Positions 39,746 through 54,600 of a stretch of 64,000 bases of DNA are shown piece after piece. Position numbers and translations under genes: made by a program. The notes under the pieces are model-generated. The model had not been told where the DNA came from. It saw only the letters and a program-made list of their open reading frames with translations, and ran no database searches. The stretch is from an uncultured Planctomycetota bacterium (GTDB lineage Bacteria; Planctomycetota; Planctomycetia; Isosphaerales; Isosphaeraceae): assembly GCA_963737655.1 (NCBI GenBank), contig CAVTTN010000002.1:1632001-1696000 (forward strand). Reading direction: 5' to 3'. How positions within the stretch are numbered: the stretch's first letter is position 1; each line of letters starts with the position of its first letter.

Positions 39746-40666
39746 GCCGCCGAAATCCTCGCGGATCGGACGCGTTCAGCCCGTCGAATCGCGGTCCCTG
39801 TCGGGTCCGCTCTTGCGGACCTCTTCGATCTCGCATCATCGCGAAGAGGTCGACAAAATCCGCGATCCGACCCGCTCAACAGGAACCTCGGACCTTCGGC
39901 GGGCGGCACGGGTCGAACCCGACCCAGGGCACCCGGCGCGAGGAGTCGGAACGGACCGACCCGACCAACCCCCGACCCGGCCAGGACCGTTCGAGCCGAG
40001 GGCCTCGCCTCGCGACGAACCCCGGACACCGACCGACCCTCGGCCCATCGCCGTCCGAACCCATCCCCGGCCCTCACGTCCCACCCCCGATCCCACGAAT
40101 CAAGATCCCGACCCCCACGTCCATCCTCGCCAATCCCTCCGAACCAAACCATCGAGACCGCACCCCACCCCCGATCACCCAATCCCGCCACCACACCCGA
40201 CCAACCTCCCGAACGCCCCCTCACGCCCCACCCCAAACGGTCCACCCATTCCGACGAAAACCGGCGACGATTCCCCAAAAATTCACTCGACACAAGCCGT
40301 TCCAGCATCCAGCTTTGCCGGTCAAAACCAAACGAATTCTCGGATCGGAACTCCTGCCCTGGCAACAGTGACTGCGCGCCAGAAAACCCTGGAAAAACCG
40401 CCCTCCGGCGCAGTTTTTCGGGAAAAAGTGTCGTCAAGTTCCTCCAAATCAACGGTCATGCACCTCTAGCCTCGAGAAAAGTTGAGCAATCCAAGAAATG
40501 AGTAGAATCCAAATCAATAAATCGCAAAACATCGGCAAAATGGACGCTCGCCAGCCCGCAAACCCGACCCCACCCGCTCCTCCCCGGCGGATTTCCCGGA
40601 AGCCCCAGACCCCCCAGGATCGCAAGCCCCGGGAACCGTCGAGTGAGCCCTCAGAAATCAAAATTT

Positions 40667-40752
40667 GGGTGACATGCTCACGTCTTCGTAAGAGTGGATT
40701 CGGCCGGGTTCGAATAGAAGACATGCCTACGAAGACGTGAGCATGCCATCCG
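40667..40752. repeat. Degenerate copy of the CATGCTTACG REP-like pair
   Basis: GGGTGACATGCTCACGTCTTCGTAAG ... CATGCCTACGAAGACGTGAGCATGCCATCCG. Confidence 0.6.
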
Positions 40753-40819
40753 ACCAAAGAAAATCCTTGCAAGGCGAACTCGCCGTCGGCAAAATCAACA
40801 ACCGGCCCGAGATTATCCA

Positions 40820-40913
40820 TCCGAAACGACGTGATAAATCACGTCGTTTCGGACGCATAATCCCGCAAATTCGGGGATTCTGCGTCACTTTCGATGTCTA
40901 CTTCATGTTAGGC
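40820..40913 (+). other. Head of cassette array: perfect 16-bp palindrome and attI-like GTTAGGC site
   Basis: TCCGAAACGACGTGAT-AA-ATCACGTCGTTTCGGA (40820-40853); GTTAGGC at 40907 with no attC arm before it. Confidence 0.5.
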
Positions 40914-41104
40914 GGCTCGGCAACCGGTCGAGCCGGGGAGGGGGATGCGATGCCCGTTCGGCCGTTCGCGCCTCGTCGCCGTGCCGGTCGTCGCGTCGCC
41001 GTGCCGGTCGTCGCGTCGCCGTCGGCCGCGCCCCGCGTCGTCGCCGCCCGGGGTGGCGCGCGTGGTCGCCGCCGGCGGTCGTGCCCCGCGCGGTCGCGCC
41101 GCCT

Positions 41105-41484
41105 CTTCGTGAACTCTTTGGCTGGGAACGGCCATCGACGCGCGACACTACCCCAACCCCAGGCTTTGTGGCCGGGCAGCGGCGAGGTCCGGGTAGCAAA
41201 CCGACGGATTCAAGAGCGGCGGACGAGGCGCGGGCCGAGAGGGGAGTCGGTTACGCTTGCAGTCTCTTCGACGGGAACATCCCCGCGAGTCGGCTCGCGG
41301 GGCGTCGCCAATGACCGGATCACGACCTCTCGGGCCAGGCTAACCTACGGGCAGGGAGCACCAAGGTGGAGACGGCCGGGAGGCCCGCGCCACACTCAGG
41401 CTACGCCGCGCCGGGTCGGCGGGCAAGTCGTCCCCGACCCCCGTTCACGCCCCGTCGGGAGCGGACGAAGGCCGCAGGATGGTT
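41105..41484 (-). mobile_element. 380-bp non-autonomous IS110-related element, copy 1, in attC inverse core
   Basis: CTTCGTGAAC...GCAGGATGGTT inserted in GCCT^AAC; ~260 bp similar to the IS110 non-coding end. Confidence 0.85.
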
Positions 41485-41573
41485 AACCTCGCGCTGCAGC
41501 GGACCCCACCCGCCGCATCGGTTTCTGGTAGATTCAAGGTCGCTCGTGCGGGTGGGTCCGCTGAGCTTGGCCG

Positions 41574-42565
41574 TTAGGCGGCTCAGGAGTCGAAGCCTTC
41601 GGTCGTGCTCGTCGTCGGCCTCGCCGGTCGCGCCTCGGCTCGACGACGCCATCGGTCGGGCCCCTGGAGTCGGCCTCGGCGGTGGTGCGCGTCGTCGCCC
41701 TCGCCGGCCGCGCCCCCGAGGTCGGGCCCGTCGGCCGGCGCCCCCTTGCCAACGCCGTCGGTCCGTGCCAGGATCGTCGGTGTCGGCGCGTGGGGCGTCG
41801 CCGGGCGCCGCCTAACCCGGCGCTGCAGCGGACCCGGCCCGCGGTCGACGATCACTCTCCTCTCAATCTCGCCGGGCGCGGGCCGGTCCGCTGAGCTTTG
41901 TCGTTAGGCGGCTCAGGAGTCGAAGCCTTCGGTCGTGCTCGTCGTCGGCCTCGCCGGTCGCGCCTCGGCTCGACGACGCCATCGGTCGGGCCCCTGGAGT
42001 CGGCCTCGGCGGTGGTGCGCGTCGTCGCCCTCGCCGGCCGCGCCCCCGAGGTCGGGCCCGTCGGCCGGCGCCCCCTTGCCAACGCCGTCGGTCCGTGCCA
42101 GGATCGTCGGTGTCGGCGCGTGGGGCGTCGCCGGGGCGCCGCCTAACCCGGCGCTGCAGCGGACCCGGCCCGCGGTCGACGATCACTCTCCTCTCAATCT
42201 CGCCGGGCGCGGGCCGGTCCGCTGAGCTTTGTCGTTAGGCGGCTCAGGAGTCGAAGCCTTCGGTCGTGCTCGTCGTCGGCCTCGCCGGTCGTGCCTCGGC
42301 TCGACGACGCCATCGGTCGGGCCCCTGGAGTCGGCCTCGGCGGTGGTGCGCGTCGTCGCCCTCGCCGGCCGCGCCCCCGAGGTCGGGCCCGTCGGCCGGC
42401 GCCCCCTTGCCAACGCCGTCGGTCCGTGCCAGGATCGTCGGTGTCGGCGCGTGGGGCGTCGCCGGGGCGCCGCCTAACCCGGCGCTGCAGCGGACCCGGC
42501 CCGCGGTCGACGATCACTCTCCTCTCAATCTCGCCGGGCGCGGGCCGGTCCGCTGAGCTTTGTCG
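41574..42565 (+). repeat. Three tandem copies of a 330-331-bp cassette with no convincing ORF
   Basis: Units 41574-41903, 41904-42234 and 42235-42565 differ by 1-2 bases. Confidence 0.93.
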
Positions 42566-42580
42566 TTAGGCGGCTAGGAG

Positions 42581-43543
42581 ATGACGTCGCCGGAAGCACG
42601 CACAATCCGACGACCCTTTCGATGGAACGGCCGATCTCGCGGCGGGGCGTTTATGGCTTTCCTGCGGATGTCGGTCCTCGGCCTCACAGGCGTCATCGCA
42701 ATGGTCGCCCTCGCATTGGCGTCTCTTCGCTACTCGACGCCGAACGTGGCGCGATGGAGCCTGACGGCGGTCTTCCTGATCCACGGGCTCGCGATCCTCG
42801 CCGCGATCTATCGACGTGGGGCGACTCGCGCCTTCTGGCTGGGCTTTGCCCTGATGGGCGGGGGCTATCTGGGCCTCTCCTCCGGCTCGTGGACGCTCAC
42901 CCAAAAGGAAGATGACTTGTACAAGAATGGATTCTTCGTGGATTTCGCCGGCGTTCACGGCGCGGTGCGTGAACCGGCCCCGCTCGGACACTGGCTAGGT
43001 ACAACGGCCCTCCTCGACTCGCTACGCATCGGGATTCAGATCGACAACGGCACCGGCTCGCCCCCGAACAGGCTGGAAGGATTGTTCGACTTCGATCGCA
43101 GGAGAAGTGCCATGCTCGCCGCGTTAGACCGGCCGCTTGAGATGCCGTTTCCACGAGAAACTCCGCTCGATGACGTGCTGAATTACATCAAGGTCTCGAC
43201 TCGCACCGCGGCCCTGCCGGACGGGATCCCGATCTACGTCGATCCGATCGGGCTGGTGGAGGCGGAGAAGACGATGTCGTCGGGCGTGAGCCTGGAAGTG
43301 AAGGGCATCCCGCTTCGGAGGTCACTGCCCCTGATCCTCGGGCAGGTCGATCTGGCGTGCGTCGTTGATGCCGATCTTGTGACGATCACCAGCCGTACCC
43401 GCGCCTCGGTGACGGACCGCGTCGAGGCGTTTCGCCGCATCGGGCACAGCCTATTCGCCTTGATATTCGCCGTCATCGGCGGGGTTGCTGCTTGTACCCT
43501 AAGGACGAAGCCTGAAAGATCCACCCACGCCGCCTCCCCGTGA
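42581..43543 (+). CDS. Cassette membrane protein with STN-like domain
   Basis: AGGAG RBS; TM helices; LDRPLEMPFPRETPLDDVLNYIK...IPIYVDPIGL...GIPLRRSL; stop codon lies inside the IS end. Confidence 0.7.
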   Translation: MTSPEARTIRRPFRWNGRSRGGAFMAFLRMSVLGLTGVIAMVALALASLRYSTPNVARWSLTAVFLIHGLAILAAIYRRGATRAFWLGFALMGGGYLGLSSGSWTLTQKEDDLYKNGFFVDFAGVHGAVREPAPLGHWLGTTALLDSLRIGIQIDNGTGSPPNRLEGLFDFDRRRSAMLAALDRPLEMPFPRETPLDDVLNYIKVSTRTAALPDGIPIYVDPIGLVEAEKTMSSGVSLEVKGIPLRRSLPLILGQVDLACVVDADLVTITSRTRASVTDRVEAFRRIGHSLFALIFAVIGGVAACTLRTKPERSTHAASP

Positions 43544-43695
43544 ACTCTTCGCGCCGGCGGTTCGGCATCGGTTGATACTATGTGGGCGTGATCATCGATC
43601 GGCCCGCATCCCCCCCGGCCCCCGCGACGACGGGGACGGCCCGATCCGGCTCGGCGGGGCTTGCGGCCGGGCGCCCCGCCTCCGACCCGTCGCCC

Positions 43696-45048
43696 TCACG
43701 ACGGCGGCGACGGCGGCGACTTCGCCACCAGCTCGTAGCCCAGCGACCTCGCCTTGCGCCGCAGCGAACGCTCCTGCTTCCGCCTCACCTCCGCCTCGTA
43801 CTCCGCCAGCGACCTCGACACGTACTCCTCGCCGTGCCTGAGCAGCCGGTACACCAGCCGCGACAGCTTGTGCGCCGTCGCCGTGATCGCCCCGCGGCCG
43901 CCGATCCGGCCCTTGATCCGCCGGTAGAACTGGCCCGTCGCCGTCGCCGTCCGGCCCGCCGCCTGCGCCGCCATCCGCAGCGCCTGACCCACCCGGTTCT
44001 TGCCCTTGCGGGGCGTGCGACGCCGCTCGGTCTTGTTGCTCCGGTCGGTCCGCGGGCAGAGGCCCAGCCAGCTGGCGAAGTGCTTCTCGCTCGGGAACCG
44101 CCCCACGTCGCCGCCGAGCTCCGCCAGGATCACCGTCGCCGTCGTCGCGTCGATCCCCTCGATGGCCGTCAGGTCGACGCCGATCGCCCGGGCCAGCTTG
44201 GCCGGGGCGTCGAACCGCACGTCGTTGGCCTTGCGGCCGCGACGCCGCGGCCTCGGGGCGACCGGCTCGCCCCCGGAGCGGTCGGGCAGGCGGTCCAGCT
44301 CCTCGGCGATCCGGGCGTCGCACTCGTCGACCTGGCGGTGGAGGTACTGGTACAGGTCGGACGCCTGCTTCAGGGCGAACAGGTGCTCGGGCCGCCAGGT
44401 GCCCTCCAGGGCCCGGGCGATCTCCGCCTCGTCCCGGGCGCACCGCTCGTGCCGCAGCGCGGCCAGCCTCGCCGGGTCGCGCTCGCCGGCGAGGATGGCG
44501 GCGATGATCGCCGTGCCGGTGACGCCCGTGATGCTGCTGACGACCTCGGTCAGCTTCACATTCATCTGCTCCAAAGCCTTCTGCATGTGCTGGACGTGGT
44601 GCGAGGCGTACCGCACGAGCATCTGCCGCTGCCGCCAGTAGCCGCGCAGGGCCAGGACGGCCCCGGGCGGGCGGAAGGACGGGCGGAGCAGGCCGCAGGC
44701 GTGGAGGCGCTGGAGCCACTGGCAGTCGAGCCGGTCGGTCTTGGGCCGGGCGCCGCAGTGGCTGGCCTGGCTCGGCTCGATGAGGAAGACCTCGAAGCCG
44801 CGCGATTCGAGCAGCTCGAACAGGGGGATCCAGTAGACGCCGGTGGACTCCAGGACCACCGAGGTGACGCCCTCGGCCCGGAACCAATCGGCCAGGGCGT
44901 GGAGGTCGGCCGAGCAGGCGCCGAAGGTGCGGACCCGTCCGGGCCCGACGCAGGCGACGTGGTTGTCGGAGTGGACGTCGACGGCGGCGGCGTGGGGGTG
45001 GACGACCGGCAGGGACGCGTCGGGATCGGGGGGCGTGCGGCGACTCAT
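43696..45048 (-). CDS. IS110-family DEDD transposase/recombinase
   Basis: AAVDVHS, VVLESTGVYW, KTDRLDCQWL, LTAIEGI, RFPSEKHFASWLGLCP...S, AITATAHKL. Confidence 0.95.
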   Translation of the reverse strand: MSRRTPPDPDASLPVVHPHAAAVDVHSDNHVACVGPGRVRTFGACSADLHALADWFRAEGVTSVVLESTGVYWIPLFELLESRGFEVFLIEPSQASHCGARPKTDRLDCQWLQRLHACGLLRPSFRPPGAVLALRGYWRQRQMLVRYASHHVQHMQKALEQMNVKLTEVVSSITGVTGTAIIAAILAGERDPARLAALRHERCARDEAEIARALEGTWRPEHLFALKQASDLYQYLHRQVDECDARIAEELDRLPDRSGGEPVAPRPRRRGRKANDVRFDAPAKLARAIGVDLTAIEGIDATTATVILAELGGDVGRFPSEKHFASWLGLCPRTDRSNKTERRRTPRKGKNRVGQALRMAAQAAGRTATATGQFYRRIKGRIGGRGAITATAHKLSRLVYRLLRHGEEYVSRSLAEYEAEVRRKQERSLRRKARSLGYELVAKSPPSPPS

Positions 45049-45074
45049 GGCGAGGGCTCCGGCGGGTGGGGGGC

Positions 45075-45337
45075 CAAGCCGTCGCGGGCCGAGAGGGGGT
45101 CCGGGGACGAGGTAGTCTCCCCGACGGGAACGTCGCGGGGCCGTGTTGACACGGCGCCGCGGGTCACCAATGATGGGGCCACGGCCTCTCGGGCCATGCT
45201 AACCTGCGGGCGGCGAGCACCAGGGAGATGACGGCCGGGAGGCCCGCGACGGCGTGCCCCAGCGTATCGCGCCCGGTGGTCGGGGCCACCCCCGGTTCAC
45301 GTCCGTCGGGGAGCGGTCGGAGACGGCGCGGAGAGTT
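45075..45337 (-). ncRNA. Candidate bridge/seek-type RNA region in the IS110 upstream non-coding end
   Basis: Long hairpin-rich non-coding end retained in all six related elements; contains CTAACCT (target-like) and GTTCACG (complement of the element end); strand and limits inferred. Confidence 0.55.
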
Positions 45338-45447
45338 AACCTCGCGCTGCAGCGGACCCCGGCCACGGGCCGCGCTTTCTCCGTTGTCATAGCTCACTGG
45401 TCCGTGGCCGGGTCCGCTGAGCTTGGTCGTTAGGCGGCTCGGTGGCG

Positions 45448-45717
45448 ATGCCTGAAGTACCGCTCGCTCACCTCGTATTCCTGCGGCGTGGCTCCGTACT
45501 CATCGTCAAGCGGCCCGAGGTCGACTGGCGGCAACTCCAAGACGAATACGACGACTACATGGCGTCGCTCGGCCCTTGGTCGGAGGACGACATCTGCGAG
45601 CACTTCGCGCTTGACTACGGGGAGGACGATCGCCGCTGGCCGTTCACGCGGTCGGCCATCGGCGAGTTCATGCGCGCGGCTGGCCCGGTCGTGCTGGAGT
45701 CGGCCGCCTCTTCGTGA
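45448..45717 (+). CDS. Cassette hypothetical protein
   Basis: ORF fills the cassette; ends ...ESAA-SS* with the stop inside the inserted element. Confidence 0.7.
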   Translation: MPEVPLAHLVFLRRGSVLIVKRPEVDWRQLQDEYDDYMASLGPWSEDDICEHFALDYGEDDRRWPFTRSAIGEFMRAAGPVVLESAASS

Positions 45718-46089
45718 ACTCTTTGGCTGGGAACGGCCATCGACGCGCAACACTACCCCAACCCCAGGCTTTGTGGCCGGGCAGCGGCGAGGTCCGGGTA
45801 GCAAACCGACGGATTCAAGAGCGGCGGACGAGGCGCGGGCCGAGAGGGGAGTCGGTTACGCTTGCAGTCTCTTCGACGGGAACATCCCCGCGAGTCGGCT
45901 CGCGGGGCGTCGCCAATGACCGGATCACGACCTCTCGGGCCAGGCTAACCTACGGGCAGGGAGCACCAAGGTGGAGACGGCCGGGAGGCCCGCGCCACAC
46001 TCAGGCTACGCCGCGCCGGGTCGGCGGGCAAGTCGTCCCCGACCCCCGTTCACGCCCCGTCGGGAGCGGACGAAGGCCGCAGGATGGTT
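45710..46089 (-). mobile_element. 380-bp non-autonomous element, copy 2
   Basis: One substitution seen versus copy 1; same GCCT^AAC junction. Confidence 0.85.
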
Positions 46090-46211
46090 AACCTTGCGCT
46101 GCAGCGGACCCCACCCGCCGCGACGGTTTTGGTACTATCCGAGGTCGCTCGGGCGGGTGGGTCCGCTGAGCTTTGTCGTTAGGCGGCGGAGATTTTATCG
46201 TGCATCGAGCG

Positions 46212-46820
46212 ATGTTCGTACTCACGGCCCTATTAACCGCCGGGTGCGGACAAGATCTATCTTCGAAGACGCCCCCGATCCTTTCGAAGGCTCTCCCCGA
46301 CTCGGGTCGCCGTGTGATTGATGCCGATCGGGTTGTAAAAGTTGCAGGGCGGACTCTCCCGGATGTTCCCCTCGTCGTGAACGGCGCGACGGGGGAGTCC
46401 GACTCCGCTGGTCATGCACTGTTCACGCTCAAAGGCGGACCGGAGCGAGTTCTGGCATCTGATCCCATCCTCAGCATCGCGCACGTCAAGATCGCGCCGG
46501 ACCGATCCGTCGGGGTCGAGAGCCGGGGAACCACGAGCGGGAATACACCCGACAAGTTCGTCTGGGACGAGCATCGCGATTTCAAGATCAATGGACAGCC
46601 GGCCACTTTGAGCCTTCGTCTGGATGGGCGCAATCATAGCCTACAAGTTGCCGGCGAGACCTTCGATCTCGCCCGAGGTAATTTCTTCACCGTCAGGCTG
46701 GCGGCCGGTTCACGTCTGGTCGCTGAACAGTTTCCACTGATTGATGTCATCGAGGATGATCCGCCCAAAGTTGAAGCCAGATTCACTGGATTCGAGAAAT
46801 CTCGACAAGGTGGTAAGTAG
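46212..46820 (+). CDS. Cassette putative lipoprotein
   Basis: MFVLTALLTAGC lipobox-like motif; lower GC; start may be the GTG at 46200. Confidence 0.7.
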   Translation: MFVLTALLTAGCGQDLSSKTPPILSKALPDSGRRVIDADRVVKVAGRTLPDVPLVVNGATGESDSAGHALFTLKGGPERVLASDPILSIAHVKIAPDRSVGVESRGTTSGNTPDKFVWDEHRDFKINGQPATLSLRLDGRNHSLQVAGETFDLARGNFFTVRLAAGSRLVAEQFPLIDVIEDDPPKVEARFTGFEKSRQGGK

Positions 46821-46865
46821 CTGTGGCCTTGCCTAAGCTTCGGCCGGCGTAGCGGCGAGATGCCT

Positions 46866-47245
46866 CTTCGTGAACTCTTTGGCTGGGAACGGCCATCGAC
46901 GCGCGACACTACCCCAACCCCAGGCTTTGTGGCCGGGCAGCGGCGAGGTCCGGGTAGCAAACCGACGGATTCAAGAGCGGCGGACGAGGCGCGGGCCGAG
47001 AGGGGAGTCGGTTACGTTTGCAGTCTCTTCGACGGGAACATCCCCGCGAGTCGGCTCGCGGGGCGTCGCCAATGACCGGATCACGACCTCTCGGGCCAGG
47101 CTAACCTACGGGCAGGGAGCACCAAGGTGGAGACGGCCGGGAGGCCCGCGCCACACTCAGGCTACGCCGCGCCGGGTCGGCGGGCAAGTCGTCCCCGACC
47201 CCCGTTCACGCCCCGTCGGGAGCGGACGAAGGCCGCAGGATGGTT
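46866..47245 (-). mobile_element. 380-bp non-autonomous element, copy 3
   Basis: One substitution seen versus copy 1; same junction. Confidence 0.85.
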
Positions 47246-47369
47246 AACCTCGCGCTGCAGCGGACCCCGCACCGCCGCGGCGATTCTTGTGTTATCATCG
47301 CGTTCTCGGCGGTGCGGGTCCGCTGAGCTTTGGCGTTAGGCGGCTCGGCGAAGATGCCTCGGGACACCC

Positions 47370-47765
47370 GTGACGTTCGACCCCGACCGAATCATGACCC
47401 TCTCGACCATGCAGTTCCGACGTTTCGGAATCGCGTGCTGCTATCGGTTGGGGTGCGACCGCAAAGACAAGCGTCTCGCGAAGGCGCTCAAGAGACTGGA
47501 GCAATCGCTGGGGCCGCCGGCCGACGAGAGCATGCGTCGTGACGCGCTCAACGCCGCCAACTCCGCTTGCCGAGACCTCTCCGCAAGCAGCGGCGTGATA
47601 CAGGTCGTTGCCCGCACCCTTGTTTGTGCCTGCTGGGACGGTCCCAATGAGAATCTGATTGGGAATTTCGAAGCGGCGCTTGAACAAGGAGAGCACTTGA
47701 GCAGGTCCGAGATCAAGGACATTGAAAGCGAGATCTTTCGGGCTATCCTGGGCGCCTCTTCGTGA
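47370..47765 (+). CDS. Cassette hypothetical helical protein
   Basis: ORF fills the cassette; ends ...ILGA-SS* with the stop inside the inserted element. Confidence 0.65.
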   Translation: MTFDPDRIMTLSTMQFRRFGIACCYRLGCDRKDKRLAKALKRLEQSLGPPADESMRRDALNAANSACRDLSASSGVIQVVARTLVCACWDGPNENLIGNFEAALEQGEHLSRSEIKDIESEIFRAILGASS

Positions 47766-48137
47766 ACTCTTTGGCTGGGAACGGCCATCGACGCGCGACA
47801 CTACCCCAACCCCAGGCTTTGTGGCCGGGCAGCGGCGAGGTCCGGGTAGCAAACCGACGGATTCAAGAGCGGCGGACGAGGCGCGGGCCGAGAGGGGAGT
47901 CGGTTACGCTTGCAGTCTCTTCGACGGGAACATCCCCGCGAGTCGGCTCGCGGGGCGTCGCCAATGACCGGATCACGACCTCTCGGGCCAGGCTAACCTA
48001 CGGGCAGGGAGCACCAAGGTGGAGACGGCCGGGAGGCCCGCGCCACACTCAGGCTACGCCGCGCCGGGTCGGCGGGCAAGTCGTCCCCGACCCCCGTTCA
48101 CGCCCCGTCGGGAGCGGACGAAGGCCGCAGGATGGTT
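47758..48137 (-). mobile_element. 380-bp non-autonomous element, copy 4
   Basis: Appears identical to copy 1; same junction. Confidence 0.85.
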
Positions 48138-48372
48138 AACCTGGCGCTGCAGCGGACCCGGCCCGCCGCGGTAGTTTCCGTGCTATCATCGGTCTGCTCG
48201 GCGGGCCGGTCCGCTGAGCTTGGTCGTTAGGCGGTTCGGGCACCGTTGGATCGCGCGGCGAAATCCAGAAGTCCCAACGGCAGCCCCTTGTCATCCGCCG
48301 CCGGGATCGATAGGGTCGCCGGCGTCGGTGCCACGCAGCGGAGCGAGGCTTGTCTAATCAGGGGCGTAATCC

Positions 48373-48582
48373 ATGAAAGCCTGGAAGAAAACCTTCCCTT
48401 CGATCGGGTTCGCGATCGCCGCCGTGGCATTCCTATTCGCCGGTTTGGAGGAGCGGGTCATCGCTGGGGGGCGGCTCCGCTACCCCATGCTGAGCTTGGC
48501 ATTCTTGTACTTCGTCTTAGCCTTCGTATTCTTCGACCGAGGCCGGAAGTCAGGTGGCGAGACCGGACCGCCAAATGCCTGA
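48373..48582 (+). CDS. Cassette small two-TM protein
   Basis: AGGGGG RBS-like site; two hydrophobic segments. Confidence 0.6.
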   Translation: MKAWKKTFPSIGFAIAAVAFLFAGLEERVIAGGRLRYPMLSLAFLYFVLAFVFFDRGRKSGGETGPPNA

Positions 48583-48651
48583 CCTGCTGGCTAGCCCGGG
48601 CGATGCGGCGAGGAGGAACGATCGTCAGCGGCATTCAAGGTCTCCCGGCCT

Positions 48652-49647
48652 CCCCGTGAACTCTTCGCGCCGACGGTTCGACATCGGTTGATACTATGTG
48701 GGCGTGATCATCGATCGGGGTCAAAAAGGGGACGGGGGTCAAAAAGGGGACGGGGGTCAAAAAGGGGACGGGGTCAAAAAGGGGACGGAGCGAATAAATT
48801 CAGCTTTTTGCATTTTGCCGCGTCTCATCCAGGCCGAACTTATTCGCTCCGTCCCCTTTTCGGCCCCCGCCGTCCCCTTTTCGGCCCCCGCGTCCCCTTT
48901 TCGGCCCCCGTCCCCTTTTCGGCCCCTCTGCCGCTGCCGCCAGTAGCCGCGCAGGGCCAGGACCGCGGCCGGCGGGCGGAAGGACGGGCGGAGCAGGCCG
49001 CACGAGTGGAGGCGCCGGAGCCACTGGCAGTCGAGCCGGTCGGTCTTGGGCCGGGCGCCGCAGTGGCTGGCCTGGCTCGGCTCGATGAGGAAGACCTCGA
49101 AGCCGCGCGATTCGAGCAGCTCGAACAGGGGGATCCAGTAGACGCCGGTGGACTCCAGGACCACCGAGGTGACGCCCTCGGCCCGGAACCAGTCGGCCAG
49201 GGCGTGGAGGTCGGCCGAGCAGGCGCCGAAGGTGCGGACCCGTCCGGGTCCGACGCAGGCGACGTGGTTGTCGGAGTGGACGTCGACGGCCGCGGCGTGG
49301 GGGTGGATGACCGGCAGGGTCGCGTCGGGATCGGGCGGCTTGCGACGGCTCATCGGGCGGCTCCGGCGGGTTGGGGCGTGGGGGCCGAGCCGCCGCGAGC
49401 CGAGAGGGGGGCCGGGGACGAGCAGTCTCCCCGACGGGAACGTCGCGGCGCCGCGTTGACACGGCGTCGCGGGTCACCAATGATGGGGCCACGGCTTCTC
49501 GGGCCAGGCTAACCTGCGGGCGGCGAGCACCAGGGAAGGGACGGCCGGGAGGCTCGCGACGGCGTGCCCCAGCGTATCGCGCCCGGTGGTCGGGGCCACC
49601 CCCGGTTCACGTCCGTCGGGGAGCGGTCGGAGACGGCGCGGAGAGTT
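48652..49647 (-). mobile_element. Internally deleted IS110 copy in attC inverse core
   Basis: Same ends as 43536-45337; transposase 49353-~48927 breaks after YWRQRQ. Confidence 0.9.
48717..48926. repeat. Palindromic AAAAGGGGAC/GTCCCCTTTT repeat block inside the deleted IS110
   Basis: (GGGGTCAAAAAGGGGAC)x4-GGAGCGAATAA...TTATTCGCTCC-(GTCCCCTTTTCGGCCCC)x4. Confidence 0.9.
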
Positions 49648-49772
49648 AACCTGGCGCGGCAGCGGACCCCGCCCGCCACGACGCCTTCTGGTATCATCAA
49701 GCCTTTCCTCGGCGGGCCGGTCCGCTGAGCTTGGGCGTTAGGCGGCTCGGAGGCGCGTAAGAGGGTCGAAAG

Positions 49773-50135
49773 GTGCCGCGACTCCGATTCACGGTGCGGG
49801 GGATGATGATCACCGTGGCGATCGCGGGGGTAGGCCTCGGCAGCCATCGGATGCACGCGCGTCGGCTCCGTTTCCTGGACCAAGCCCGATCCCATGCGGA
49901 GTCCGAGGCACATTGCGCCTTCATGTGGAGCGAGGTCTCCGCCTACCCGGATTTCCGATGGCCGGGCGACCGGCGACCCCCGAGGCCGCCCGAGAAAGTT
50001 CGCAGCGAGCAAGCGGCCGCGCGATCGTATTATGAGAGGAAGATCGCCCACCACGTCACCATGCGCGCGAAGTACGAGCGCGCCGCCCGCTACCCGTGGC
50101 TCCCCGTCGCGCCCGACTCGCGCGAGCCCAAGTGA
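49773..50135 (+). CDS. Cassette hypothetical protein with N-terminal RFTVRGMMI.VA signal-like motif
   Basis: Follows attC9; ends KYERAARYPWLPVAPD; no attC after it. Confidence 0.65.
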   Translation: MPRLRFTVRGMMITVAIAGVGLGSHRMHARRLRFLDQARSHAESEAHCAFMWSEVSAYPDFRWPGDRRPPRPPEKVRSEQAAARSYYERKIAHHVTMRAKYERAARYPWLPVAPDSREPK

Positions 50136-50148
50136 GGACACGCCATGC

Positions 50149-50650
50149 TGGACTTCCCCGCCGAGGGCGGGCGCCGGGTTACGAGCGTAAGCTCGAACCT
50201 GGAGGCCTTCATGCCGACGATCCGAAGGACGTGCACGCCCGAGTTCAAGGCCGAGGCCGTCAAGCTCGTCACCGAGCAGGGGCGGAGCTTCGTCGAGGTC
50301 TCTCGCGACCTCGACATCGGCGACAGCACGCTGAGGGGCTGGCGGGATGCCATCGCCAAGGACGGCCAGCGGGTCTTCCCGGGGCGGGGCATCCCGCCCG
50401 CCCTGGAGGAGGAACTCCGCCGCCTCCGCGCCGATGTCAAGCGGCTCACGATGGAGCGCGACATCCTGAAAGAAGCGACGGCCTGCTTCGCCGGGGGGTC
50501 GTCATGAGGTACGGCTTCGTCGAGGCCCACCGGGGCGATGGCCGGTCCGGCTCATGTGCCGGGTCCCGCGCGTCTCCCCGGGCGGCTACTACGACTGGCG
50601 GGGAAGGCCGAAGAGGGAAGGGGCACGGAGGCGCGACGACCTGGTCGTCG
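50149..50650 (+). mobile_element. Truncated IS3-family element (orfA 50211-50507 and start of orfB)
   Basis: TGGACTTCCCC end; TPEFKAEAVKLV...LTMERDILKEA; MRYGFVEAHR, MCRV.RVSPGGYYDW. Confidence 0.85.
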
Positions 50651-51604
50651 CCCAAACGCTCCGGGGCGGCGAGACGATCACGTCCCAGTCGTCCGCGAAG
50701 CACCTGCCCAGCCGGTTCCGCGTGACGGCCCAGCAGGGCGCCAGCAACCGGATGCCGAGCTACCGGCTCGAACCCGAGGACGCCCCGACGGCACGACAGA
50801 CCCCGCTCCGTCGGCTCGAAGGACCGACGACGTCTCCGGGGACCAGGGCCGAGGCGGCGCCCGTCCCACCGGCCTCACCGCAGAAGGCTCCGGCCTGGCC
50901 GGAGAGCTTCCTCGCCGAGGCCCAGGCCCTGGCCCGCGACCTGGCGAGCGACCGGCCCGGCCGCCACGGCCTCCAGTTCGTCGTCGAGGAGCTCCAGGAG
51001 GTCGTCAACGACCGGCCCGACGACCTGCTGACGATCCTCCTGGCCGGGTACGTGGCCTCGGTGAAACTCGCCTGCGCGAGCGAACCCGATCGGGCCTACC
51101 GCGGCCACTTCGACGACCTGGCGCGGAAGGCCCTCGACCCGACCCTCCAGAACGTGGCGACGACCGCCCGACCCGGGGGCCTCGGCTCGCTCCTGGGGGC
51201 CGTCACCCGCTGACTCGGCCTCGGCCGCGAGGCCTGACCGGAAGACGAAGCCGTCGCCCGTCCCCACGCCCGACCTCGGCGCGGGCCCTCCCGTCGCACT
51301 CCGCGAGATCGGCCCCTATGGTCCGGCGGGGACGGTCCCCGGCGCCCTGCACGACGATCGTCCCGCCCAGCCGCGGGCGAGCCAGGTCCGCAAGCTCCGC
51401 GCGATCCCGAGGTCGTCAGGGCCTTCCGTCGGACCCCCCTGGAGTTCCTCGCGAACGGGCTTCCTGTCCTCGGCGGACGCGAGTGCGTCCGGAAATCCCG
51501 AACGAGAGGATGTCTTCATGAAGGGAGTCATCGCAAGCCCGAAGGACGGCCCCGCCAACGGGCCGCTGGTCCGAATGGAGCGTCGGGAGCCGGGTGGCGC
51601 GGTC

Positions 51605-54600
51605 GTCTCAATGGGGCCACGGCCTTGGGGCCGTGGATGACGTCAACTTGACGATCTGCTTCAATGGGGCCACGGCCTTGGGGCCGTGGATGACGCGAGT
51701 CAGGCGGTTGAAGTAGCCGGCCGACGATGCGCTTCAATGGGGCCACGGCCTTGGGGCCGTGGATGACTACTCGCCGGAGGGCGCGATGGTGTAGCCGTCC
51801 TCGCTTCAATGGGGCCACGGCCTTGGGGCCGTGGATGACGGGCCGGCGTGGCGTCGATCCGGGCGTGAATCCCCTGGCTTCAATGGGGCCACGGCCTTGG
51901 GGCCGTGGATGACTCCGACGACGACGCGGCGGCGTGGGTCGAGGCCCTGCTTCAATGGGGCCACGGCCTTGGGGCCGTGGATGACAGGATCTGCTGGACG
52001 CCGTGGAGAAGGCGGAGGGGATGCTTCAATGGGGCCACGGCCTTGGGGCCGTGGATGACCAGGTCCTCGACGTGGCCGAGCTGCGGGTCTCCGAGCTTCA
52101 ATGGGGCCACGGCCTTGGGGCCGTGGATGACCCTCCATTGGCCCAAGGGCCGCGGCCCTGAGACCTCGCTTCAATGGGGCCACGGCCTTGGGGCCGTGGA
52201 TGACGTGCCCGAGGTCGATCCGACCGTGGGCGGGCTAGCCGAGCTTCAATGGGGCCACGGCCTTGGGGCCGTGGATGACGGCGTGGGTATTTAGGTGGCC
52301 ATGAATTGGCGAGAAGCTTCAATGGGGCCACGGCCTTGGGGCCGTGGATGACCGCATAAGCCCGCCAGAGGCCGTAATACACGTCATCGCTTCAATGGGG
52401 CCACGGCCTTGGGGCCGTGGATGACGAAGACGATCGCCAAGGGCCGGGGCGTGCATATCAAGCTTCAATGGGGCCACGGCCTTGGGGCCGTGGATGACGT
52501 CAGGACTCCCTGGATCGCCGCCGCGAGCGCCTCGCTTCAATGGGGCCACGGCCTTGGGGCCGTGGATGACGCCTGTCTTGCAGGACCTGCGTGCGTGCAC
52601 GACACGCTTCAATGGGGCCACGGCCTTGGGGCCGTGGATGACTCGGATCGGACGATCGCGACGAGCTGGCGATCGGGACTTCAATGGGGCCACGGCCTTG
52701 GGGCCGTGGATGACGGGACGTAGCCGGTGACGACGTGCATCGACGGCGTGCTTCAATGGGGCCACGGCCTTGGGGCCGTGGATGACTTCCGTTCGCCGCG
52801 TAGAGCGAGCACACCGACTGGTGGCTTCAATGGGGCCACGGCCTTGGGGCCGTGGATGACTCGCCGCCCCGCGGGTCGATGAGGAGGCTGCGGAAGATGC
52901 TTCAATGGGGCCACGGCCTTGGGGCCGTGGATGACACCCTCGGAGTTAACAACGCTCTCAACAGGGGCAACTAGCTTCAATGGGGCCACGGCCTTGGGGC
53001 CGTGGATGACGCCCAGGACGACAAGGGCGTGCTCGTGCGGTTCCTGCTTCAATGGGGCCACGGCCTTGGGGCCGTGGATGACGGCGGCGGTGGCGACCTC
53101 GGCCTGTCTCTCGTCGGGGCTTCAATGGGGCCACGGCCTTGGGGCCGTGGATGACCCGGATGGAGGCGATCGCCGCCAGTGCCAAGGTCGATCGGCTTCA
53201 ATGGGGCCACGGCCTTGGGGCCGTGGATGACGTGTCGGACTCCCGGCCCGAGGCGAAGGGGGCGACGCTTCAATGGGGCCACGGCCTTGGGGCCGTGGAT
53301 GACGAAGCCCTGGTGCATCGCGTCCCGCACCAGCACAACGCGCTTCAATGGGGCCACGGCCTTGGGGCCGTGGATGACATCCTCACGGTGGTCGGCGTCG
53401 GGTTCATGCTCCTGCTTCAATGGGGCCACGGCCTTGGGGCCGTGGATGACGACATCGACAAGCTGCACCGCCTCCGGGGCGTGCTGCTTCAATGGGGCCA
53501 CGGCCTTGGGGCCGTGGATGACCGAACAACGCCCTCGGCAACCTCCGCTGGGACACGCCGCTTCAATGGGGCCACGGCCTTGGGGCCGTGGATGACCCTA
53601 CCAGAAATCCCAGATTGACGTCCGCTACGTCGTGCTTCAATGGGGCCACGGCCTTGGGGCCGTGGATGACGGCCGCCGACCAGGTGCTCTACGGCCCGCT
53701 GGACAAGCTTCAATGGGGCCACGGCCTTGGGGCCGTGGATGACAGGAATCCCCCGGATGGGATGATCGGATAAGCGAAGCTTCAATGGGGCCACGGCCTT
53801 GGGGCCGTGGATGACGCGGCGAGGAAGCCGGGGCCGTGCCGCCGGAGCCAGCTTCAATGGGGCCACGGCCTTGGGGCCGTGGATGACGCCTGGTCGGCCC
53901 GACGGACGGTGACCCGGCCGGAGAGAGCTTCAATGGGGCCACGGCCTTGGGGCCGTGGATGACGACGGCCTCGCCCCGGTGTCGCGGAGGAAGTCGAGGC
54001 TTCAATGGGGCCACGGCCTTGGGGCCGTGGATGACGCCTGCGAGCCGTCGAGCGGGTAATCCCGCGAGCGGCTTCAATGGGGCCACGGCCTTGGGGCCGT
54101 GGATGACCGGGTCCGGGAGCGGATGCAAGCCAACCGGGACCGGCTTCAATGGGGCCACGGCCTTGGGGCCGTGGATGACGCTGGGGGTCAAGTTCACCCG
54201 CCACGCCCCGAACGCGCTTCAATGGGGCCACGGCCTTGGGGCCGTGGATGACCCGTACCGATTGACCGGCCCCTTCTTCGTTATGGCCACGCTCGCCGCT
54301 TCAATGGGGCCACGGCCTTGGGGCCGTGGATGACGTGCTGGCTCGGGCCGATGTCGCCGTAGTTCGACGTGCTTCAATGGGGCCACGGCCTTGGGGCCGT
54401 GGATGACCAAGCAAGCCGAGGCCAATCTGATCGCCCGGGGCGAGCTTCAATGGGGCCACGGCCTTGGGGCCGTGGATGACGGCCGGCAACGCGACGGCGA
54501 GCCTCGGATTTCGCTCGCTTCAATGGGGCCACGGCCTTGGGGCCGTGGATGACCGCCGACCGGGTCGAGGCCTTCGCGGCGACCCTGGCGCTTCAATGGG

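Follow-up and report, generated by a model that had tools for sequence, protein, structure and literature searches.

RNA-guided DEDD recombinases, their bridge or seek RNAs and the targeting of integron attC sites by IS1111-group elements are established. In the IS110 group of insertion sequences (IS), a long non-coding left end (LE) lies upstream of the recombinase gene and the right end (RE) is shorter (PMC11208160, PMC11187229). Bridge RNA functions in trans, with mismatches in the left-donor guide being poorly tolerated in IS621 (PMC11208160), and a cargo with short IS ends on either side is mobile once transposase and seekRNA have been provided in trans (PMC11187229). The same source reports that circle formation requires flanking target bases and that the guide order of IS1111 seekRNAs is opposite to that of ISEc21. 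MITEPpu9, the ssr9 module of ISPpu9 in Pseudomonas putida KT2440, forms circles with an IS110-family transposase (PMC12288879). Here we describe 380-bp repeats, hereafter short elements, that interrupt integron attC sites in a 64,000-nt stretch of DNA (the window, G000:C2:1632001-1696000) from the genome of an uncultured Isosphaeraceae bacterium of the phylum Planctomycetota (7.6 Mb; G+C content 68.7%). Coordinates are positions in the window unless prefixed C2. The short elements carry no transposase gene, and we consider it likely that they form a non-autonomous IS110-group lineage that inserts into the inverse core of attC by RNA-guided DEDD recombination.

Results

Short elements occupy attC sites at one base and in one orientation

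Read on the minus strand, the short element consists of a left end, a ~170-nt structured RNA gene and ~115 bp of unrelated sequence ending in an IS-like RE. Its first 260-270 nt align with the 289-bp non-coding LE of a full-length IS residing in the same array (75% identity over 167 nt by BLAST), and its last ~115 nt are unrelated to that IS except for ~16 nt at the right tip. The array and the short elements within it are laid out as follows:

41101..49743, plus strand: array of nine attC sites and cassettes, a cluster of attC sites lacking integron integrases (CALIN) by type, with no adjoining integrase gene
41810-41909, 42141-42240 and 42472-42571: intact attC sites, from boxes and fold
41101-41104, 43532-43535, 45706-45709, 46862-46865, 47754-47757 and 48648-48651: GCCT halves of split attC sites, with AAC resuming directly after each insert
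41105..41484, minus strand (RNA sense): short element S1, 380 bp, no transposase, LE at 41484 and RE at 41105
45710..46089, minus strand: short element S2, one difference from S1 in the alignment
46866..47245, minus strand: short element S3, one difference from S1 in the alignment
47758..48137, minus strand: short element S4, identical to S1 in the alignment

All nine attC sites of the window possess the boxes GCCTAAC (R″) and GTTAGGC (R′), matching RYYYAAC and GTTRRRY, respectively. Intact sites fold as single-strand hairpins with an unpaired centre, at -41 kcal/mol for both strands (z -5.8 for the bottom and -5.6 for the top strand), and none of 200 shuffled sequences folded equally well. 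The window sites thus display the boxes, the imperfect palindrome and the hairpin by which attC membership is judged. Six of the nine are interrupted between GCCT and AAC: four by a short element, one by the full IS and one by a deleted IS. Since the sole integron integrase gene of the genome (C2:6777135-6778073; TIGR02249, 474.6 bits against a cut-off of 265) adjoins another array, at 6.78 Mb, the window array is an integrase-less attC cluster.

BLAST of the three element types (short, full IS and deleted IS) against this genome returned 28 full-length short copies, six full IS (96.5-100% identity) and two deleted IS. Relative to S1, 15 short copies are 100% identical, six 99.7%, one 99.5% and two 99.2%, i.e. 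24 of the 28 are at least 99.2% identical; the others stand at 98.2, 95.3, 88.2 and 87.4%, one copy each. All 36 copies sit at the same attC base and in one orientation relative to attC, flanked by xCCT on one side and AACCTnGCGCTGCAGCGGACC on the other. An nhmmer profile of the RNA core (see below) searched against the genome gave 36 matches, which are exactly these 36 elements. For the short copy at C2:1971065 there is an empty paralogous site (C2:6787842-6787960; 99.2% identical over 120 nt) that reads ..GACGCCTAACCTCGC..; in the filled version, GCCT and AAC are cleanly separated by the 380 bp, no base is duplicated, and the junction is ambiguous by one base. This comparison indicates precise insertion without target duplication, and the empty site together with 36 of 36 copies at one base and in one orientation excludes chance as the source of the observation.

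The original prediction, made from the letters of the window, had anticipated much of this arrangement. It placed a split at GCCT^AAC in six of nine attC sites, which repeats, sequence and alignment confirm at the positions listed above; it put four 380-bp copies within one base of the first, and S4 proved identical with S2 and S3 one base away each; and the full IS110 and the deleted copy that it drew at 43536-45337 and 48652-49647 are upheld by Pfam domains and BLAST. A genome-wide BLAST with tabulated flanks, which it had proposed as a check, found no copy at an unrelated site, 36 of 36 being in attC. Its notion of recent spread also stands, given the 15 identical and 24 nearly identical copies among 28, but the spread is not confined to the array: its scale is genome-wide, with 28 short copies against six full IS.

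A purely passive multiplication of the copies, whether integron cassettes were shuffled, segments duplicated from array to array or similar attC sites converted by one another, would have to account for the same census. Cassettes common to several arrays do exist, and the copies at C2:1673105 and C2:6786655 share both flanks, with two more pairs sharing one flank; a few of the 28 copies therefore arose by segmental duplication and not by transposition. However, the 28 copies show 27 distinct combinations of left and right flank, the homology to the left of the insert amounts to just 4-8 nt of the cassette end, and insertion is base-exact in differing attC sites, coinciding with a 7-mer encoded in the element's RNA. 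We give this explanation next to no credence. [quoted passage not shown] We know of no IS110 element that has terminal inverted repeats.

A 125-amino-acid plus-strand open reading frame (ORF) across each short element was considered and rejected as coding: it contains a stop in the 88% copy and lacks a Pfam match, and the copy from another species of the genus, at 83% identity, is closed in all three frames. The short elements are thus transposase-free, as had been predicted.

The extent of attC occupation was gauged by a pattern search of the genome for the attC 5′ half and then for a recognisable 3′ half, which gave 90 matches to the former, 80 of them with the latter. Twenty-seven of these 80 two-halved attC-like sites hold the short element and eight hold the IS or its deleted forms (35 occupied, 44%), the remainder comprising 38 empty ..CT^AAC junctions and seven other junction sequences. 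The short element hence occupies about one third of the attC-like sites of the genome. Occupation on this scale would also suit a host takeover, in which the element, as RNA or as DNA, would switch off or regulate attC sites or cassette expression and be kept by selection instead of selfish spread, and insertion, by parting GCCT from AAC of the R″ box, should impair R-box folding of attC. Yet near-identical copies are the pattern of a recent burst, the features retained are exactly those for self-recognition and targeting, and no host-side feature was found in the analysis; a host takeover is very unlikely.

Two further observations concern the arrays themselves. Window positions 41473-42575 contain one 331-bp cassette in three tandem copies, two of them 100% identical, and the same cassette family is found in other arrays of the genome at ~79% identity. 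Despite a spread of the arrays over 0.28-6.79 Mb, a single chromosomal strand bears 27 of the 28 short copies, every one of the six IS and the majority of attC clusters.

Short elements and the IS share a covarying RNA fold

The part of the short element that is homologous to the LE of the IS contains a structured RNA core:

41221..41393, minus strand: structured RNA core of S1, a bridge/seek-RNA homologue (columns 96-278 of alignment A3)
S1 core positions plus 4605 (S2), 5761 (S3) and 6653 (S4): RNA cores of the other short elements
45075..45255, minus strand: structured RNA core of the IS

Alignment A3 comprised 17 sequences (three IS variants, five short variants and nine relatives), and the RNA core was defined as its columns 96-278. 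The consensus fold is made up of an outer stem plus two inner domains. In the alignment cells of its 42 retained pairs, standard pairing reaches 95.4%, as compared to 39-47% after a shift of the 3′ partners by 1-3 columns; changes on both sides are seen in nine pairs, and the covariation score was reached by none of 500 shuffles. In the helix formed by columns 191-197 and 212-218, the sequence differs between the short element and the IS and the pairing is retained. An Rfam scan of 40000-52500 (E up to 1) found no family matching the RNA region. Taken together, the region common to the short element and the IS fits an LE-encoded bridge or seek RNA. The original prediction had listed sequence blocks shared over ~260 bp with the non-coding end of the IS, and these are real (alignment; 75% over 167 nt by BLAST); a common RNA structure, which it had named as a check, was found in the form of this covarying fold.

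Guide segments track target and donor DNA

Two unpaired segments of the RNA core, and tentatively a third segment, match DNA at the junctions of the element:

41340..41346, minus strand: S1 left-target guide AGGTTAG (RNA sense), the same as the attC strand GAGGTT^AGGC over five left-flank nucleotides and AG
45199-45205, minus strand: left-target guide of the IS, AGGTTAG
41264..41270, minus strand: left-donor guide of S1, CGAAGAG, equal to the last 5 nt of its own RE (..CACGAAG) plus AG
45117-45123, minus strand: left-donor guide of the IS, CGGGGAG, matching its own RE ..CACGGGG
41364..41369, minus strand: tentative right-target guide of S1, CCACCT, complementary to AGGCGG right of the target at 5 of 6 positions

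The target guide (columns 146-152) reproduces the five bases that precede the element on its left, followed by AG, with which the right flank begins; this is so in nine of nine families that between them use five targets. For a broader sample, one genome per species was searched for the conserved motif around the target-guide segment; this species-representative scan gave 42 loci with 45 matches, titled mostly as Isosphaeraceae or other Planctomycetota assemblies. Among the 42 modules with enough upstream sequence for the comparison, 37 show, at a fixed distance, a left junction that reads as their own guide 6-mer followed by A, and five do not (L070, L084, L086, L091 and L102); in a control of mismatched guide/flank pairs this was so for 3 of 517. 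Counted by distinct target guides, 12 of 14 match their own flank. Since the short element and the IS have the same target guide, both land in GAGGTT^AGGC, the inverse core of attC.

The donor guide (columns 229-235) equals the last five RE bases plus AG in nine of nine families and in 30 of 31 rows of a wider set, and columns 229-235 thus correspond, by this match, to a putative left-donor guide. Its three states covary with the ends: TGGGG goes with ..CATGGGG, CGGGG, as in the resident IS, with ..CACGGGG, and CGAAG, as in the short elements, with ..CACGAAG, the CGAAG state being found in all short elements of this genome and of the other species of the genus. A donor guide that matches the integrated right junction fits the reported need for flanking target bases in circle formation (PMC11187229). 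The short element accordingly carries a predicted target guide for attC and a predicted donor guide for itself. The view of these elements as guide-RNA units, put forward in the original prediction, gains from this, as the guide segments track target and donor DNA in the way that bridge and seek RNAs do.

On the right-hand side of the target, a variable 7-mer 5′ of a conserved (T)GGTGC is complementary to AG and the next right-flank bases in some families, with an exact 5-mer in 3 of 27 cases (controls: 8 of 588) and a 6-mer in 2 of 27 (controls: 0 of 604). In our reading the RNA has a target loop, and this shorter and less certain guide, for the right half of the target, is placed 5′ of the left-target guide. 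If this segment is the right-target guide, the more 5′ guide would pair with the top strand and the other with the bottom strand. Two other assignments were discarded. Inspection ruled out the variable 7-mer as an antisense of the left target, and the segment CGTCCCCG of the IS, CGTAACCG in the short element, was dropped as a second covarying donor element because relative L070 pairs CGTAACCG with a TGGGG-type guide.

The resident IS and its recombinase

The full IS of the window and its deleted copy have the following parts:

43536..45337, minus strand: full-length IS110-family element, 1802 bp (sequence, BLAST)
45049-45337, minus strand: LE of the IS, 289 bp non-coding, upstream of the transposase
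43696..45048, minus strand: transposase (DEDD recombinase), 450 amino acids (Pfam)
43536-43695, minus strand: RE of the IS, 160 bp
48652..49647, minus strand: internally deleted IS copy, 996 bp, which retains its two ends as well as the RNA region and the initial portion of the transposase gene
48720..48930, no strand assigned: 211-bp foreign hairpin-forming insert in the deleted IS, with inverted arms of tandem 18-19-mers

The transposase contains the domains DEDD_Tnp_IS110 (PF01548, E 2.6e-17) and Transposase_20 (PF02371, E 9.9e-18), and its only relative among solved structures is the IS621 transposase, a bridge recombinase (E 5.9e-11). The 450-amino-acid ORF is intact in all six full IS copies of the genome. 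Based on the two domains, the long LE and short RE, the site- and orientation-specific insertion and the covarying LE-encoded structured RNA, the element at 43536-45337 belongs to the IS110 family and, within it, to the IS110 group.

The IS also contains a 7-bp inverted repeat (alignment A3 columns 38-46), CGTGAAC at 45295-45301 (LE positions 37-43) and GTTCACG at 43540-43546, 4 nt from the RE tip; the base next to it covaries in three relatives (C/T/G with G/A/C). This could be an IS1111-type sub-terminal repeat unusually deep in the LE, or a further RNA guide. As measured by the sub-terminal repeats of IS1111-attC elements (7-17 bp, at both ends), a 7-bp repeat is present, with its LE copy far from the tip. 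Inside the LE, on the strand opposite to the RNA, a sigma-70-like promoter match at 45146-45174 (plus strand; TTGACA, 17 nt, AATGAT; 10 of 12 positions) points outward to the downstream cassette, and the hairpin containing its first hexamer is absent from the short element.

In the deleted copy, IS positions 1-67 and 1087-1802 are retained at 94-97% identity, and positions 68-1086 are replaced by the 211-bp insert. The latter belongs to a hairpin-forming element of ~200 bp with four tandem 18-19-mers (GGGTCAAAAAGGGGACG-like) per inverted arm, copies of which lie at 48720-48930, C2:286711-286888 and C2:6792334-6792451, with weaker partial copies at about six other places. It sits exactly where the middle is lost in both deleted IS, and also by a truncated attC near another short element; it may be a small mobile element tied to IS deletions. 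Rfam matches to miRNAs at 48722-48920 are artefacts of the long hairpin in this insert.

The only other IS110-family gene of the genome (C2:4847084-4848523; PF01548, 106.9 bits) is present in a single copy, and was rejected as helper or parent given that it has no significant blastp similarity to the attC-targeting transposase. A similar motif (GGCCGT-7 nt-TGGTGC...GCCCG-8 nt-TCTGGCCCGGA) occurs in its upstream region; an attC is found at a distance of ~0.6 kb from the gene, which also has a partial copy of 724 bp at C2:286889.

Beyond the array, window positions 40640-40880 hold two strong palindromes to the left of the first GTTAGGC (40907), where the array begins: the first reads ..GACATGCTCACGTCTTCGTA.. 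with its inverse ~50 nt on, the second CGAAACGACGTGAT..ATCACGTCGTTTCG. About 1.8 kb to the right of the last attC, a CRISPR array runs from 51597-52500 onward, with 37-nt repeats at 72-74-bp spacing; its repeats resemble Rfam CRISPR-DR16, below threshold (29.6 versus 35 bits).

The short element as a sister lineage of the IS

Relatives were sought among 100 genomes of the family and in the species-representative scan. The short element recurs in another species of the same genus, full-length at 83% identity and again inside attC, and nine other family genomes have the RNA core, at ~70% identity, upstream of transposases that are 60-78% identical. A parent IS with CGAAG-type ends was found neither in this genome nor among the 100 family genomes or the 42 loci of the scan, in which CGAAGAG is confined to the same-genus short element. 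The short element, which has a donor guide and ends of its own, is a sister lineage of the resident IS and not its derivative. The description of the short elements as derivatives of the IS, contained in the original prediction, thus holds as far as homology and the RNA-only state go and fails as regards descent. The RNA-only architecture, encountered at 95, 88 and 87% identity within the genome and at 83% in the second species, makes the lineage look long non-autonomous, and the near-identical copies look like a very recent burst in this genome.

Three other RNA modules without a transposase gene (L068, L069 and L074) each occur in a single copy, as does a simple deletion derivative of ~490 bp in an attC of genome G083 (L044). 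Counting modules of the species-representative scan that are followed by 2 kb or more of sequence, four had no recombinase gene within that distance. Close relatives of RNA and transposase also appear on short contigs labelled Actinomycetota, Solirubrobacteraceae, Acidimicrobiales, Mycobacterium and Acidiferrales (L070, L071, L094, L096 and L104), with L071 and L094 having the same attC-type guide as the window IS. These off-phylum relatives are either mis-binned planctomycete contigs or the result of inter-phylum transfer.

A different history is conceivable, in which the short elements are inert relics of a lost parent IS with CGAAG-type ends whose transposase amplified them, the resident IS being inactive on them. 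The donor guide and both termini do differ from those of the resident IS, and a full-length CGAAG-ended element was encountered neither in the genome nor in the species-representative scan. On the other hand, 15 identical copies and 24 of at least 99.2% identity speak for a very recent amplification, requiring an active recombinase; the resident IS, with six intact ORFs, holds the genome's only recombinase with a related RNA scaffold; and the lineage has endured in its RNA-only form, as subfamilies at 95, 88 and 87% and a second species with an 83% copy show. A lost parent therefore seems to us improbable, though less so than the two alternatives discussed above.

A model for self-guided mobilisation in trans

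In the mechanism that we favour, the short element would be transcribed into its own guide RNA, and this RNA would load onto the 450-amino-acid recombinase produced from the six intact IS copies. Pairing of the RNA with the element's own ends would lead to excision as a circle, with a predicted RE-LE junction of ..CACGAAG joined to AACCATCC.., and pairing with an empty attC would lead to reinsertion. The resident IS recombinase would thereby mobilise the short element in trans, as the original prediction had supposed. Most likely, the short element supplies its own RNA and borrows only the recombinase, because its donor guide and RE differ from those of the IS and the protein-contacting scaffold blocks are conserved. 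The RNA of the IS has two mismatches in seven with the end of the short element; together with the poor tolerance of such mismatches in IS621 (PMC11208160), this would explain why the RNA gene has been kept.

Taken one step further, the short elements would be a long-lived, self-guiding, RNA-only transposon lineage that in effect hyperparasitises the IS: its donor loop would be restricted to the lineage's own ends, and it would need nothing but the IS protein. A donor loop specific to its own ends would mean that the parent's RNA cannot move the short element, which outnumbers its helper IS 28 to 6. We find this extension as plausible as it is doubtful.

The proposal of RNA-guided insertion builds on what was observed of the element's anatomy and copy number, its specificity for site and orientation, the precision of its insertion, the conservation of the fold and the covariation of guides with DNA, and several points weigh against it. 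Transcription, recombinase binding, circle formation and current activity of the short element are suppositions of the model, and a promoter and terminator scan of 41000-45500 detected none for the minus-strand RNA and no promoter for the short-element RNA. The termini and RNA of the short element are only ~75% identical to those of the resident IS, whose recombinase is assumed to recognise them. In the same-genus genome with a short element, the transposases found were only 40-42% identical, apart from one C-terminal fragment at 76%, though that assembly is fragmented, with a completeness of 77%. Regarding the guides, donor covariation comprises only three sequence states, i.e. two independent changes, the right-target assignment of the variable 7-mer is weak and tentative, and no covarying segment complementary to the LE tips, as expected of a right-donor guide, was found in the nine families. 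Finally, the copies with shared flanks have to be subtracted from those attributed to transposition.

Discussion

The locus presents a derivative that is reduced to the guide RNA and has a donor code of its own, within an attC-targeting lineage of the IS110 group. Bridge- and seek-RNA recombinases are intensely studied as genome-writing tools, and far less is known about their behaviour as natural populations. The present locus offers a natural case in which the multiplying unit is the guide-RNA gene rather than the enzyme gene. The shift of the donor guide along with the element's own end provides evolutionary evidence for selection on donor self-recognition by the RNA, and evidence that protein and RNA can come from separate loci. 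Moreover, the relatives yield a set of natural guide/target pairs for the LE-encoded RNA of the 450-amino-acid recombinase subgroup (14 guides, 12 matching). If general, guide-RNA-only derivatives would be the natural non-autonomous form of bridge-recombinase elements and a natural test of protein/RNA orthogonality.

The host side is affected as well. Occupation of 35 of 80 attC-like sites must influence cassette mobility in this genome and, should the short elements be self-guiding hyperparasites, cassettes at occupied attC sites are probably frozen. The target itself points to convergence, in that an IS110-group lineage has arrived at attC, previously known as the target of IS1111-attC elements.

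Among mobile elements of other types, there is a likeness to the PATE-like (palindrome-associated transposable element) omega-RNA elements, protein-less IS200/IS605 derivatives that keep the parent's guide-RNA gene. They differ in belonging to TnpA/TnpB systems, with an RNA that guides a nuclease and not transposition itself. As to the IS110 family, no transposase-less element carrying a bridge RNA was described in the main texts covered by full-text searches. The nearest cases are MITEPpu9 and those of a 2026 preprint (10.64898/2026.08.14.744561), which presents the converse, recombinase-only elements without a 5′ untranslated region, obtained with a pipeline that dropped lineages lacking 95% of the transposase gene.

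MITEPpu9 resembles the short element as a small transposase-less module with IS-like ends that also occurs apart from its IS (PMC12288879). Its cargo, Ssr9, is not a bridge RNA and is dispensable for transposition, and five of its eight copies are IS-attached (PMC12288879), whereas the cargo here is a guide RNA whose donor guide matches the element's own end, in 28 free copies against six IS. Engineered mini-IS, with cargo between ISEc11 or ISEc21 ends, show that ends, RNA and protein in trans suffice for movement (PMC11187229); these are laboratory constructs, as opposed to a natural lineage with the RNA packaged inside the mini-element.

The IS1111-attC elements ISKpn4, ISPst6 and ISPa25 are RNA-guided members of the same superfamily and insert at a fixed position and in a fixed orientation at one attC end (PMC11187229). 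Their RNA is encoded downstream of a transposase of 330-350 amino acids (PMC11187229) and here upstream of one of 450 amino acids, which makes this an independent attC-targeting lineage on the IS110-group side. With IS621 and ISEc21, the elements described here have in common a DEDD recombinase, a structured RNA in a long non-coding LE upstream of the gene, insertion in one orientation without target duplication, and RNA segments that, around a short core, base-pair with target and donor on opposite strands (PMC11208160, PMC11187229). In contrast, the recombinase comprises 450 amino acids here and 326-328 in IS621, the target is an integron attC, and the guide order is apparently that of IS1111 seekRNAs and not that of ISEc21, even though the RNA is LE-encoded; it appears to depart from the order in IS621, too. 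The main difference from IS621 and ISEc21 is that in this genome the RNA-carrying, transposase-less form is the dominant one.

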